Assembly: GCA_964385185.1 (NCBI GenBank)
Contig: CAYLOA010000007.1
Location: 1 to 41,634 of the forward strand
Direction of reading: 5' to 3'
Length of the DNA: 41,634 nucleotides
Source of the DNA: an uncultured Methanosarcinales archaeon
GTDB lineage: Archaea; Nanobdellota; Nanobdellia; Woesearchaeales; CALCXY01
Shown here: positions 23,881 to 31,430 of the stretch, piece by piece
Layout: every line of letters begins with the position of its first letter
Numbering within the stretch: the first letter of the stretch is position 1
The notes under the pieces: generated by a model
Seen by the model: only the letters and a program-made list of their open reading frames with translations
Told to the model about the DNA's origin: nothing
The model's database searches: none
Made by a program: the position numbers and the translations under genes

Positions 23881-24099
23881 ATTCCAAAATATTTTCCCAA
23901 ATCCGTAAATACCACTAGACAAGTAGAGCTAAAGTATATAAATCTTCTCGTCTTATTACATTTCAGGAAAAAGGGGAAAGTAAAGTTAACATAAATTTTC
24001 TTTCGGAAAATCACGAAATGAATTTAAGCTTCCTTTACTGAAAGGTCTCTTTTTCTTAATCCAAAGTTTAAAGAATTGAAAACTTTGGAGGTAATCGAA

Positions 24100-24840
24100 A
24101 TGAATAAGCGAGAAAAAATAATACAACTGATCAAACAAGATAAATCAATAAATCATATATCCAGAACACTTGAGGTAGGAAAATCCACCATTTACTACCA
24201 TTACAAAAAGATCAAAGGCAGAAAAATCAAAGAAGTGAAGATTAATGGCACAGATGACATGATTGGTGAATTTATAGGATTATTTGCAGGAGATGGGTGT
24301 TTTTACAAGGCAAAGAATTACCTTTATAGAATATATTTGATTTTTAATATCACCGAAAAGAATTTTGTTTTAGAAACTAAAGATTTACTAACAAAATTAT
24401 TTGATAAATCACCATCTATGTATAGAAGCCTAAATACGTTGATTCTTTTATATAGATCAAGAGACATATTTGATTTCATAATGTCCTATTTGCAGTGGAG
24501 TCCATATAAAAGAAAGGCTCATACAATTTGCCTGAGGAATCACAACCATTCAAGAGCGTTCAAAATTGGTTTCCTCCGTGGAAATGTAGACAGTGATGGT
24601 CACATTTCAAAAAATGTAATCAGTTTTGCTTCCTCCTCTCCATATCTGATTGATGATATTCGAAAGTTCCTTTCAGATTTAAATATCCAACATAAATATA
24701 GAGAGTATGAAGAAAGGAGAACAAATAGGGTAAATATGCATCATGTTAGAATTCTAAAAGAAGATAGAACGAAATTTATGTTATTAATCAAACCAAGAGA
24801 ATTGAAAAATTTAAAAAAGTATGCGCCGGCTGGGATTTGA
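24100..24840 (+). CDS. HTH-LAGLIDADG endonuclease-like protein
   Basis: FIGLFAGDG and FLRGNVDSDG motifs; HTH INHISRTLEVGKSTIYYH; GGAGGT SD; stop codon lies antisense within tRNA-Gly T-loop. Confidence 0.85.
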   Translation: MNKREKIIQLIKQDKSINHISRTLEVGKSTIYYHYKKIKGRKIKEVKINGTDDMIGEFIGLFAGDGCFYKAKNYLYRIYLIFNITEKNFVLETKDLLTKLFDKSPSMYRSLNTLILLYRSRDIFDFIMSYLQWSPYKRKAHTICLRNHNHSRAFKIGFLRGNVDSDGHISKNVISFASSSPYLIDDIRKFLSDLNIQHKYREYEERRTNRVNMHHVRILKEDRTKFMLLIKPRELKNLKKYAPAGI

Positions 24841-24920
24841 ACCCAGATAGATGGCTATCGACTTTTCCGAAAATTTCGGAAAATTGGAAGGCCACAGTCA
24901 TGCCATTAGACCACCGGCGC
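24822..24920 (-). tRNA. tRNA-Gly(TCC) with 28-nt intron at 37/38 (24857-24884)
   Basis: GCGCCGG/CCGGCGC acceptor stem; GTGGC-CTTCCA^intron^A-GCCAT; CTGGG-TTCAAAT-CCCAG. Confidence 0.93.
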
Positions 24921-28304: not shown

Positions 28305-29483
28305 ATGAGATTCAACCCACTCCGTGATAAACAAGTTAAATTCTCTAACATTAAACAAAAACTCACGAAAAAAGACTTCTTTGGAGAAGCTCCTGCACCA
28401 TTTATCGGCAGATACAACTATCCAAATATTAACGTTGGCATACTCTCACCCGTAGACATCAAAGAAAACACTTGGGAATATGATGCACCAAGACATTGGT
28501 CTTCTCAAGATTATCAAATTCCCAACATCATAGACTTCAGGTCAGAATTAATCAACTCAAGATTTACTTCAAATGTAAAAGATGTAAATCTAGCACCAAA
28601 GATGCTTCAAATTACCCAAGAAGTAGGGATGGCCTCAAAACCAGTAGAAGTAGAAATAAACTTAGAGAAAAAGCCATTCTTCAGAGTAGACACAAATAAA
28701 TTCGTAGCTCCAACCGGTCCTAAAGGACATATAGAAAGGGCGAGAATAACATCCAACTCAAAAATTTCCTCAAAAGTAGAGTATGTAGTAAATGACTATG
28801 GCCTTAAAGCAAACGATGCAGCCATTAACCTCTACGAAAAAGGATTCGACGAACAAGTTGTCCAAAAACTACTATCAGTAGGGACCCTAGGAATAAAAAC
28901 ACAGAGAAAACTTGTTCCAACAAGATGGAGTATAACTGCTGCTGACGACACCATAGGAAAACACATCATAACAGAAATAAAAAAAAATAGCGAAGCAGAC
29001 TATCAAGCATACATGGGTGGTTATTTAGGAAACTATTACCTTATCATGTTCTTTCCAGAACCGTGGTCATATGAACTGTTCGAAACATATGCTAATGGAA
29101 TCCCAGAAAAAAATCCAGACTACACTACAGACTTTGAAGTCTATGAAGGAAGAAAATCATACGCAAAAGACACCGTTGGCGGTTATTACACTGTTAGATT
29201 AGCAATCTTAGAAAAATTAAAGCAAATGAAACGCCAAGCTACCGCAATTGCCTTAAGATTCATAACAAATGAATACACCCTCCCGCTAGGTGTCTGGGTA
29301 ACAAGAGAAGCAGCAAGAAGGGCCATGTCATCTAAACCCATCTCATTCTCTGACAAAACCTTAATGATAAAATACGCAGACCTCATAATAAAAAGAAAAT
29401 TCAATTACAACATTCACCATCTATTAAACAACTCATATCTATACAGAAAGCAAAAATACCAAAAGAAACTAAGCGCTTTCTAG
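28305..29483 (+). CDS. nreA: Nre family PCNA-interacting DNA repair protein
   Basis: FIGRYNYPNINVG, RKLVPTRWSITAADD, GGYY..RL, LGVWVTRE, C-terminal PIP QKKLSAF. Confidence 0.9.
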   Translation: MRFNPLRDKQVKFSNIKQKLTKKDFFGEAPAPFIGRYNYPNINVGILSPVDIKENTWEYDAPRHWSSQDYQIPNIIDFRSELINSRFTSNVKDVNLAPKMLQITQEVGMASKPVEVEINLEKKPFFRVDTNKFVAPTGPKGHIERARITSNSKISSKVEYVVNDYGLKANDAAINLYEKGFDEQVVQKLLSVGTLGIKTQRKLVPTRWSITAADDTIGKHIITEIKKNSEADYQAYMGGYLGNYYLIMFFPEPWSYELFETYANGIPEKNPDYTTDFEVYEGRKSYAKDTVGGYYTVRLAILEKLKQMKRQATAIALRFITNEYTLPLGVWVTREAARRAMSSKPISFSDKTLMIKYADLIIKRKFNYNIHHLLNNSYLYRKQKYQKKLSAF

Positions 29484-29529
29484 AAGTTAGGGCTTACAAA
29501 ATAACAAAAAACCTAAATTTAGGGCTTAC
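29484..29529. repeat. Left 46-bp paired-repeat site flanking fic
   Basis: AAGTTAGGGCTTACAAA-N17-TTTAGGGCTTAC. Confidence 0.85.
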
Positions 29530-29531
29530 TT

Positions 29532-29556
29532 AAAAATCGCCAAAAAGGCGATTTTT
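29532..29556. terminator. Hairpin between convergent nreA and fic, possible bidirectional terminator
   Basis: AAAAATCGCC-AAAAA-GGCGATTTTT followed by a T run. Confidence 0.6.
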
Positions 29557-29562
29557 TTTACA

Positions 29563-30483
29563 CTACCCCCACTTACTAAATATCTTCTCCCAAGTATACA
29601 TTAACTCATTGTAAAAGAACGCAACAATCTCATTATAGTCCTCACTAACTCCATCCAAATCAGCCTTATGCCCTCTATCCAAAGCTGCATAATAGTGTTT
29701 CCTTTTTTTCTCTTCGATGATCAAAAGAGGAAACCTCTCCCTTATCAATATCAAGTTACTCAACATCCTGCCAGTCCTACCATTACCGTCATAAAAAGGA
29801 TGAATTCTCTCAAATTTCTCATGAAATAAAGCACTTAAAACTAAGGGGTGTAATTTTTTCTTCCATTTTCTATACCATTTTAACAATATTTCCATGTCAG
29901 TCTGAACATATTTGCCAGGACTGGGTAAAAATTCAGCCCCGATAACTCTTACCCCTCTCGTTCTATAATCACCAGTTCGTTGATCAATTTTTTCCAAAAT
30001 ACCAGCATGTATTTGAACAATCACTTCATGCGTTATCTCAGGTTTCTCCTTTAACAGCCATTCAAATACTTCCTTGGCATTAATATGGTCATACACTTCT
30101 CTCAAGTCCTTCCCAGAAGGACTTTTCCCTCTATTCAACACCATGTCAGTCTGCTCAATAGTAAGAGTATTACCTTCTATTGTATTAGTATTGTAAATAT
30201 AAACTGTCTTAAAATCTCTAAACATATCTTCAATGAGTTTTTTATCTAAATGCTTCAATTTATCTGAAAATTCCTTCTTAATCTTTTGCAAATCCCTAAG
30301 TTCCTTTTTAGTAAGAAATTCAACAGATTGTTTATTCTTAATTATCTTATCTAATTCATTCTTAGTGAAAGGTCCTTTTCCCAAATAAGCAACAGTCTTA
30401 GTCTTCACATTACCATTATCCCTATAAGACTCTTTCAGATAGTAATACTCCTCATTATGTATCTTCTTTTTCTCAACATACAT
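29563..30483 (-). CDS. Fic family protein (class II-like) with N-terminal putative DNA-binding domain
   Basis: HPFYDGNGRTGR catalytic motif; TNTIEGN inhibitory motif; N-terminal YYYLKESYRDNGNVKTKTVAYLGK. Confidence 0.93.
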   Translation of the reverse strand: MYVEKKKIHNEEYYYLKESYRDNGNVKTKTVAYLGKGPFTKNELDKIIKNKQSVEFLTKKELRDLQKIKKEFSDKLKHLDKKLIEDMFRDFKTVYIYNTNTIEGNTLTIEQTDMVLNRGKSPSGKDLREVYDHINAKEVFEWLLKEKPEITHEVIVQIHAGILEKIDQRTGDYRTRGVRVIGAEFLPSPGKYVQTDMEILLKWYRKWKKKLHPLVLSALFHEKFERIHPFYDGNGRTGRMLSNLILIRERFPLLIIEEKKRKHYYAALDRGHKADLDGVSEDYNEIVAFFYNELMYTWEKIFSKWG

Positions 30484-30488
30484 AAGAA

Positions 30489-30534
30489 AAGTTAGGGCTT
30501 ACAAATATATAAATATATCGATTTTAGGGCTTAC
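30489..30534. repeat. Right 46-bp paired-repeat site enclosing the fic TATA box
   Basis: AAGTTAGGGCTTACAAA-N17-TTTAGGGCTTAC; spacer reads TTTATATA on the minus strand. Confidence 0.85.
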
Positions 30535-30551
30535 AATTCAATAACTAGAAT

Positions 30552-31304
30552 CTACTCCAAATACAACAAACCAATCATAACAGCTATTCCTAAAACCATA
30601 AAGAAAAACTGCTTCACTAATTTAGACATAGGATACACATCCTTCCTTAATTCTGGAATTAAATCACTCCCTGCAATATAAATAAATCCTCCAGCAGTAA
30701 AAGGTAATAATCCAGCAACAAATCCTCCACCTTGTAACAACAACACAATAACAGCTCCAATTACAGCAACTAAAGCACTCCCAAGATTAAACAATAATGC
30801 TTTACTACGAGAATAACCTGCATGTAGCAAAACTCCAAAGTCTCCAATCTCTTGAGGAATCTCGTGTAAAGCCACAGCAATAGTTGTTGCAACTCCAATC
30901 TGAGGACCTGCTAAAAAAGCTCCTGCAATAACCATACCATCAATAAGATTGTGTAATCCATCCCCAATAATATTCATAGTCCCGTGAGGGTGCGGATGAT
31001 CATCTGAAGTAGGGATATGACAATGTCTCCAGTGTATAAAATTCTCCAAGACATAAAACAACACTATCCCAGAGATCAAATATAATCCAAATTCCAATCC
31101 TGATCCAAGTTGAGAAATACCTTCTGGAATAAGATGAAAAATCGCCCCACCGAACAAACTCCCAGCAGAAAAACTCACCATAAAGACCAATACCTTACGA
31201 AGTCTATCTTTACTAAATCCAAGTGTAAAAACACCAATAAGAGAAAGTAAACTAACTGCAAGAACAGCAATGATAGTATTAATCCAAACTCCCATACTCA
31301 TCAA
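30552..31304 (-). CDS. ZIP family metal transporter
   Basis: HLIPE, His-rich loop, GDGLHNLIDG, HEIPQEIGDF. Confidence 0.95.
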   Translation of the reverse strand: MMSMGVWINTIIAVLAVSLLSLIGVFTLGFSKDRLRKVLVFMVSFSAGSLFGGAIFHLIPEGISQLGSGLEFGLYLISGIVLFYVLENFIHWRHCHIPTSDDHPHPHGTMNIIGDGLHNLIDGMVIAGAFLAGPQIGVATTIAVALHEIPQEIGDFGVLLHAGYSRSKALLFNLGSALVAVIGAVIVLLLQGGGFVAGLLPFTAGGFIYIAGSDLIPELRKDVYPMSKLVKQFFFMVLGIAVMIGLLYLE

Positions 31305-31346: not shown

Positions 31347-31430
31347 CTACTGGACGTTGCCCTTATTTTTCGGCTAATGGTCCGAAAAATAGAAGGGTAG
31401 GCTCACTGTGTGAGCCACCAAGTCCAGTAG
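31347..31430. other. Three-way-junction element containing the C-TGT-G hairpin, copy E3
   Basis: CTACTGGAC/GTCCAGTAG outer stem; TGCCCTT-ATTTTTCGG/CCGAAAAAT-AG-AAGGGTA arm; GGCTCAC-TGT-GTGAGCC arm with 16 nt identical to E2. Confidence 0.7.

Follow-up and report, generated by a model that had tools for sequence, protein, structure and literature searches.

The window analysed here, a 41,634-nucleotide stretch of an archaeal contig, carries a Fic gene flanked by nreA, which ends at 29483, and a ZIP transporter gene, which ends at 30552 (Table 1). Exact copies of TTAGGGCTTAC start at 29487, 29519, 30492 and 30524, all on the + strand, 32 bp apart inside each pair and 1005 bp from pair to pair, so that the paired 46-bp repeat sites of the original prediction were confirmed as four exact copies. 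On the gene strand each box reads GTAAGCCCTAA, and we refer to h1 and h2 as the promoter pair and to h3 and h4 as the downstream pair. The 46-nt units (29484-29529 and 30489-30534) are 76% identical, the differences lying in the spacer. A motif common away from fic had been named as an observation that would count against the prediction; the four boxes are the only exact matches in the 1,297,047-bp genome, where allowing up to two mismatches per box retrieved only two more pairs, both degenerate.

Table 1. Features of the Fic unit, with coordinates in the window.
Feature	Position	Strand	Evidence or remark
Fic gene, 306 aa, class II type, with N-terminal three-strand-plus-helix domain	29563..30483	-	ORF, Pfam, AlphaFold2, Foldseek
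N-terminal domain, residues 1-51	30331..30483	-	Homologous to IS1634-family transposase N-terminus; putative box-binding domain
Inhibitory (S/T)xxxE(G/N) motif, T99-E103-G104	30172..30189	-	Present in 46/46 clade proteins
Fic active-site motif HPFYDGNGRTGR, H228-R239	29767..29802	-	Canonical HxFx(D/E)GNGRxxR in 46/46 clade proteins
Box h1, outer, promoter pair	30524..30534	-	GTAAGCCCTAA on gene strand; -51 from ATG
TATA-like TTTATATA, between h1 and h2	30506..30513	-	Sequence; -30..-23 from ATG; putative promoter element
Box h2, inner, promoter pair, TATA-to-ATG interval	30492..30502	-	-19 from ATG
Hairpin, 10 bp with A/T tails, between Fic stop and downstream pair	29532..29556	.	Possible two-way terminator
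Box h3, inner, downstream pair	29519..29529	-	Exact match
Box h4, outer, downstream pair	29487..29497	-	3 nt from nreA stop codon

The flank consensus of homologues gives (T)GTA[AG][GT]CCCTAA(A) as the conserved unit on the gene strand, with no conservation of the outer AAG/AAA letters of the 46-mer. Box h2 lies at -18 to -21 from the ATG in 43 of 46 clade members, and the inner downstream box is at most 5 nt from the stop codon in most relatives. Here, a 32-nt segment that is absent in the congener G001 separates the Fic stop from the downstream pair and contains the hairpin, which has fold energies of -15 and -18 kcal/mol (one value per strand) and was not called by a bacterial terminator scan. 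At many loci, outer-box letters double as stop codons of the neighbouring genes (TAA/TAG in h1, TAG in the reverse of h4).

The Pfam Fic match covers residues 150-246 (E = 7e-22, above the cut-off), and none of the NCBIfam Fic models reaches its cut-off on this protein. The AlphaFold2 model (mean pLDDT 91.8) had BT_2513 (3cuc, E = 1e-13) and FICD as its best Foldseek matches, indicating a Fic fold. Because a canonical Fic motif is combined with an N-terminal inhibitory motif, we classify the protein as class II and as a predicted AMP transferase; the definition used, taken from the accessible text of PMC9755527, is an inhibitory motif N-terminal to the active-site motif in the same chain. No sign of toxicity of this Fic emerged in any analysis here.

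The N-terminal domain is modelled as strands 2-8, 11-22 and 25-36 followed by a helix at 41-51, and belongs to no family in the Pfam copy searched, PHROGs or PDB sequences. No significant match came out of a fold search, in which the top score was Z 4.0, for an unrelated chain; 3jtz, an integrase arm-binding/AP2-like comparison, ranked tenth with a fitting topology (Z 3.2, rmsd 2.2, 41 aligned), and Foldseek with the small domain returned nothing under E 0.001. Two structure neighbours of the domain are assigned by the Atlas to PF30413, which is absent from the Pfam copy searched. A profile built from 41 such domains matched 1848 cluster representatives and 90 of 151 genomes of the host's order (this tally, like those below of 10/401, 28/401 and 4 lone versus 8 filled, includes the unpublished genomes G121, G132 and G315, on which nothing else here depends).

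In a protein-only search, the clade of this Fic (E ≤ 1e-70) was present in 10 of 401 genomes of the host's order, from 7 of about 136 families. The host group is Woesearchaeota-like, judging from the source names of the homologues. In all 10 genomes, one pair encloses the TATA box and another lies at the stop codon, when one mismatch is allowed in a box pattern that was broadened once two variant loci had come to light. A pattern scan across 185,579 genomes yielded 61 stretches on 44 contigs, which comprise 25 full Fic units, 1 truncated unit, 13 lone sites and 5 bacterial repeats; a metagenome scan yielded 99 stretches, with the same picture among the 79 listed. The bacterial matches (L049, L056, L063, L070 and L089) and similar metagenome matches are tandem or REP-like repeats and were excluded. 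One of them, L063:2501-2542, is a REP-like intergenic repeat of Bacteroidia with a similar word inside a hairpin and no Fic link. In viruses, 0 box pairs were found, with no own-clade member among the 80 best loci.

In total, 46 distinct clade proteins were collected, mostly via the box pattern, which biases the set toward having one pair. The promoter pair is present in all 46; the downstream pair is present in 35, starts in the coding end in 1, is missing in 8 and is cut in 2, so that it is missing in 8 of the 44 members with enough flank. The expectation that homologues would have their own boxes on both flanks was thus borne out, in 10/10 genomes found by protein alone and in 35/46 clade members.

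Between the two flanks of the 36 complete units, boxes are 95.3% identical and spacers 44.5% identical, the latter against a background of 42.2% in unrelated units. A TATA-like word occurs in 34/36 upstream but 3/36 downstream spacers, and boxes recur at a period of 31-33 bp upstream and of 30-33 bp downstream, even though no TATA constraint applies downstream. Box variants also agree within units, with 85 identical upstream/downstream pairs against 43.7 in shuffled data (reached in 0/5000 shuffles), and no conserved letters were found outside h1 and h4 in the 36 units. With boxes near-identical, the period held and spacers at background, these comparisons indicate that both pairs are selected for box sequence and spacing, without selection for a common spacer. 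Such a pattern is hard to reconcile with a scheme in which only the promoter pair works and the downstream pair is a neutral leftover of repeated tandem duplication and collapse: spacers drifted to background while the boxes and their period stayed, and few downstream spacers kept the TATA word. Although some units have near-identical upstream and downstream sites (in L231b including the TATA spacer) and 8 of 44 members have no downstream pair, we consider this scheme very improbable and, in the main, already largely refuted.

Other Fic clades, at 27-42% identity, have different boxes, mostly an inverted pair round the TATA box. A second upstream copy was found in 47/53 of these Fics and a stop-side copy in 19/54 (one test) or 21/53 (another, whose automatically selected motif was incorrect at some loci, with errors either way). 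Since the downstream copy is absent in 8/44 own-clade and most other-clade Fics, it is dispensable. Domain similarity was correlated with box similarity (Mantel rho 0.39, 0/2000 shuffles, n=57) in a sample of 57 of the 91 confident carriers, with our clade thinned to 7; kin in this sample are not independent, which inflates rho.

The domain is not restricted to Fic proteins. It is fused, at the N-terminus, to GlyRS (L237, L241, L254 and L257), GatD (L255), PheS (L258), NuoE (L266 and L269), an FAD oxidoreductase and MNT nucleotidyltransferases, and also occurs as stand-alone proteins of 45-60 residues. Most non-Fic carriers have a box in the TATA-to-ATG interval. Compared with the Fic of nearest domain, three MNT fusions have 8-9 of 9 box letters in common, the FAD oxidoreductase 8/9, GatD 7/9 and the four GlyRS fusions 5-8/9 (one at 7-8), against means of 3.5-4.2 of 9; the motifs in eight of these fusion comparisons were set by hand. 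The PheS fusion box does not follow its nearest Fic (3/9 letters), and one NuoE fusion and four carriers of 160-170 residues have no clear pair. In a quick domain tree, the GatD and GlyRS domains group near the Fic clade studied here. A stop-side box was found in 1 of 23 carriers that are neither Fic nor IS, and in 0/10 enzyme fusions.

Two further carriers lie in the genome of the window itself. A stand-alone 61-aa carrier (G000:C44; L251:1292-1683) has four TAGTGCCTAA boxes upstream, at spacings of 58, 38 and 58 bp, and a 46-aa carrier (G000:C58; L252:1-1629) lies immediately 5' of a 494-aa ORF that we take to resemble an IS1182-type transposase.

Because box location and box sequence follow the domain across clades and fusion partners, we consider it highly probable that residues 1-51 bind the boxes and that the protein represses its own gene. 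Each domain-carrying gene likely acts in the same way on itself, as opposed to a dispersed regulon.

The resemblance of the N-terminus to IS1634 transposases, noted at the outset, was substantiated by the profile, which matches 10 of 30 IS1634 loci tested, and by an Atlas structure neighbour, a Bacillota IS1634 transposase with a TM of 0.77. A second profile, made from those 10 IS1634 domains, reaches 7 of 19 others at E < 0.01. The boxes have counterparts in these elements as well. By a strict test, 5 of 11 domain-bearing IS1634 elements have a TGTAG in the interval -33..+10 around the stop codon, as against 18 of 476 control gene ends. The five loci with the clearest boxes (L276, L278, L293, L294 and L301), which form one related group, have TGTAG at the stop codon or immediately ahead of it, together with an inverted copy within the left end; four of them also carry a direct copy after the TATA box. 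L299 and L308 have variant boxes at both ends, by eye, and no such boxes were found in four other domain-bearing elements. In four of these elements, the box is 28-31 bp inside CC..GG terminal repeats. The IS1634 transposase genes L313 and L288 have the direct layout of the Fic clade of this locus: TGTAGTG boxes of 11-17 bp lie in the promoter and again at the stop codon or beyond it. Read together, the target flank and terminal repeat of L292, L294 and L295 spell TGTA(T/A-rich)CCTA. This resembles both the own-clade box and the L295 promoter box, a similarity that may reflect chance or target recognition.

The Fic units lack the terminal repeats of such elements. CC..GG at IS spacing was found in 0/16 other-clade Fic units with outward boxes and in 4/4 IS controls, and a terminal repeat with duplication in 0/96 Fic loci, by a test that found it in 2/10 IS controls, many cut by contig ends. 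NF033559, the NCBIfam model of IS1634, has no DDE transposase match in this genome or in G001, and the ORF of the unit is the Fic gene. The model matches 28 of 401 genomes of the host's order; none of the 10 clade genomes is among them, which is uninformative, with 0.7 expected by chance. IS1634 domains have 1-5 of 9 box letters in common with the nearest Fic domain, and a quick, unrooted 40-column domain tree mostly separates IS from Fic.

The Fic N-terminal domain probably originated in IS1634, a direction that the wider spread of the domain in IS1634 suggests and that neither the box letters nor the unrooted tree establishes. In the simplest history, Fic would have replaced the DDE core inside an IS1634-like element, whose termini were then lost. 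In the fusions, host genes, tRNA synthetases included, have likely captured the DNA-binding domain of a transposase on further occasions.

Empty sites had been expected in the absence of the unit. Lone single sites do exist, in 13 genomes, but no empty nreA-ZIP locus was found: G001 has its Fic at the same locus with other neighbours, three other genes lying between nreA and the downstream pair and ZIP being on another contig. None of the 13 lone-site genomes, which are incomplete assemblies, has an own-clade Fic (best identity 40%), and two have no domain carrier at all. By the strict pattern, lone perfect pairs occur in 4 genomes against 8 filled, and pairs this common would need very fast turnover if they are neutral scars. 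Several lone sites retain traces of a Fic gene, including a C-terminal remnant (L100, E = 4e-6), a 3' fragment (L050), a start reading MYLERKK 8 nt after h2 (L090) and, by eye and not significant by profile, a few last codons (L074). The aroA end is filled in L096; in L175 it has one pair, with h1 in the same position and 324 of 400 upstream nucleotides identical. L081 is a triple, with a TATA spacer followed by a plain spacer, as expected from an h2-h3 crossover, and in L067, L091 and L186 an other-clade Fic adjoins the old site. Given the absence of the cognate Fic and the several remnants, we read the lone sites as scars of loss, some of them presumably left by box-to-box deletion.

The genomic settings of the unit indicate that it does move. 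Upstream genes belong to 30 families among 42 and downstream genes to 34 among 38, and Fic pairs at 70-79% identity have a common neighbour in 4/26 cases, many flanks being under 2 kb. Fic identity reaches 71-74% in cross-family pairs, while one same-genus pair is at 56% and one same-family pair at 61%. Upstream neighbours are co-directional in 33/42 cases and downstream neighbours convergent in 27/38, so gaps at gene 3' ends are preferred. Within the genus, the unit stays between nreA and a DUF4145-alaS block and its immediate neighbours change. Near-duplicate sites that include the spacer were seen in L006, L009, L011, L231b and L189, and boxes of another clade are stacked beside the site in 3/126 flanks. 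One slot, which we take to be the 3' end of an aCPSF1-like gene, holds filled units, a lone pair and degenerate other-clade boxes on both sides in L079, L160, L098, L181 and L185, as if Fic units had replaced one another there.

Such data raise the question of a mobile single-gene cassette, whose ends Fic would hold while a host enzyme, whether tyrosine recombinase, repair pathway or IS1634 transposase acting in trans, excised a 1-kb circle and re-inserted it at or beside family boxes. The patchy spread, the diverse neighbours, the common h1 position of L096 and L175, the L081 triple, the near-duplicate sites and the stacked boxes would all suit it, as would the 5 tyrosine-recombinase matches in the genome, 4 of them above the cut-off; none of these is on this contig, and no serine recombinase was found in this genome. 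We nevertheless consider the cassette unlikely. There is no identical crossover core, the boxes vary with the Fic clade, unlike the site of a host recombinase, and neither IS-type termini nor, in the weakly controlled test, terminal repeats with duplications accompany Fic loci. Moreover, the remnants at several lone sites mean that loss was often imprecise, the cognate Fic is elsewhere in 0/13 lone-site genomes, this genome and G001 have no IS1634 match and the unit keeps one locus within the genus. The proposal that the repeats are recombination ends in the strict sense was therefore not upheld: a common crossover core and terminal repeats were missing, no target duplication was seen in the weakly controlled test, and the lone sites are scar-like. 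Nor did the 1005-bp circle junctions that it entailed appear in any of 8 runs, all of them contigs. More generally, no circle, deletion joint or loose end at the boxes was found in runs X1-X4, which may be the source of this DNA, and X11-X14 (depth 2-5 in X11-X14), although assembled contigs drop rare forms and the result is hence no evidence that such forms are absent. A loose-ended record at 30460-30535 in X14 proved to be a related promoter of another organism, not an excision joint.

Two known types of site were excluded by structure. In a tyrosine-recombinase site, inverted arms flank a core of 6-8 bp that does not differ between partner sites; the direct boxes and the 21-bp spacers at background identity exclude att, dif and pdif. 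An integron cassette has a palindromic attC after a promoterless gene, with IntI nearby, and is excluded by the direct-repeat boxes, by the TATA word in 34/36 upstream spacers and by the lack of a tyrosine recombinase on the contig.

A bolder possibility, to which we likewise give little credence, is a recombinase-free mobile gene of Woesearchaeota: a transposon in which an AMP transferase took the place of the catalytic core and which would still pair its ends by means of the inherited end-binding domain, loop out a 1-kb circle and land at or beside the boxes of earlier units, its domain-plus-promoter half having been captured repeatedly by tRNA synthetases and other core genes as an autoregulation switch.

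On balance, we favour a self-repressing Fic that has kept the end-binding domain of a transposase and the boxes of both ends, likely bridged, and that behaves as high-turnover cargo, not as a transposon. The four boxes would then be bound by Fic and would likely descend from the two inner ends of an IS1634-like insertion sequence, an origin to which the homologous domain, the same box layout in IS1634 ends and the lost DDE core and terminal repeats all point. In this model, a Fic dimer would grip the boxes of the promoter pair, which lie three helical turns apart and bracket the TATA box and start site, and there is strong reason to expect that it thereby represses its own transcription. With moderate support, the downstream pair would be bound likewise, and Fic oligomers would bridge the pairs, much as the transposase once paired two ends; the resulting 1-kb loop would make repression tighter or adjust its level. 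We put the chances at about even that this bridging is why the downstream pair was kept. The direct repeats would also ease deletion, an h1-h3 or h2-h3 crossover leaving a pair or a triple, and deletion together with ordinary decay could explain the lone sites. The unit would spread horizontally, entering gaps at the 3' ends of genes with no dedicated recombinase.

The downstream pair could alternatively work alone. If Fic bound there formed an independent roadblock against read-through or antisense transcription, it would shield its own gene and the neighbour without a loop. Convergent downstream neighbours (27/38), whose ends often border the pair, <50 nt from the Fic stop, fit such a role, as does the clear selection on the downstream boxes. 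However, many of the 11/38 co-directional neighbours adjoin units that keep the pair, the present unit already has a hairpin beside it, and the housekeeping fusions do without a stop-side box (0/10), so we regard a roadblock as rather improbable.

Compared with known systems, the favoured model of a bridged, self-repressing unit combines familiar parts. The lac O1/O2 operators and the lambda CI OL-OR system pair a promoter operator with a distant copy, bound by one oligomer. The Fic unit is alike in having a promoter box pair and a distant copy, and differs in that its predicted loop encloses precisely the gene for the regulator, itself an AMP transferase. Integron cassettes and pdif modules are single genes between short sites that occur in many places, with empty-looking sites elsewhere. 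The Fic unit fits that description too; unlike them, it has a putative promoter of its own, direct, non-palindromic and clade-specific boxes, no common core and no adjacent integrase.

IS1634 ends are poorly conserved, with AT-rich target duplications of 5-6 bp (PMC2266710). The Fic units resemble IS1634 (NF033559) in the homologous N-terminal domain and in carrying TGTAG-type boxes at the stop codon, after the TATA box and within the left end. They differ in having no DDE core, no CC..GG repeats, no duplication seen and boxes doubled to pairs of 31-33 bp. A regulatory parallel is CccR of Yersinia pseudotuberculosis, a class II Fic; according to the accessible text (PMC9755527), its dimer occupies two 10-bp boxes separated by 26 bp and thereby represses its own gene. 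Both are class II Fic proteins with a fused DNA-binding domain and two short, widely spaced promoter boxes (10-N26-10 in CccR). As far as that text goes, CccR has a C-terminal HTH and inverted boxes, with no post-gene site named, whereas the present Fic has an N-terminal three-strand sheet common to a transposase, direct boxes and a second pair after the stop. In vertebrates, host domains have repeatedly acquired transposase DNA-binding domains by fusion, with sequence-specific repressors as the outcome, as described in the accessible part of Cosby et al. (bioRxiv 10.1101/2020.05.07.082677). Relative to that account, the captures here are archaeal, involve gene fusion without splicing and would bring promoter and operator along with the domain. 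Autorepressing Fic proteins and transposase capture are thus already known kinds. Their combination appears new among the literature covered: no description of it was found in titles and abstract starts, a search that did not extend to most subscription journals.

Several implications arise from these findings. A 45-residue domain without a family in the Pfam copy searched gains a predicted DNA target and an origin, and more than 25 natural domain/box pairs become usable for reading a recognition code. The data point to repeated capture in archaea of a transposase DNA-binding domain together with its operator, a route best described in vertebrates. Subterminal boxes are identified for the poorly studied IS1634 family, and the end alignments in the supplement of PMC2266710 may bear on whether they had been noticed earlier. 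The control of class II Fic proteins is for the most part poorly understood, and here repression via a loop round the gene provides a testable model.

Elsewhere in the window, Rfam identified 3 tRNAs only. One of these (24822-24920, - strand), found by Rfam and missed by ARAGORN, resembles, by eye, a tRNA-Gly(TCC) interrupted by an intron some 27 nt long, and is overlapped by the 3' end of an HTH and LAGLIDADG gene at 24076-24840 (+ strand). Finally, positions 31350-31430 hold a MITE-like 80-nt repeat with CTGGAC..GTCCAG ends and inner hairpins, of which 8 further copies, at 73-90% identity, lie on 7 other contigs of the genome.
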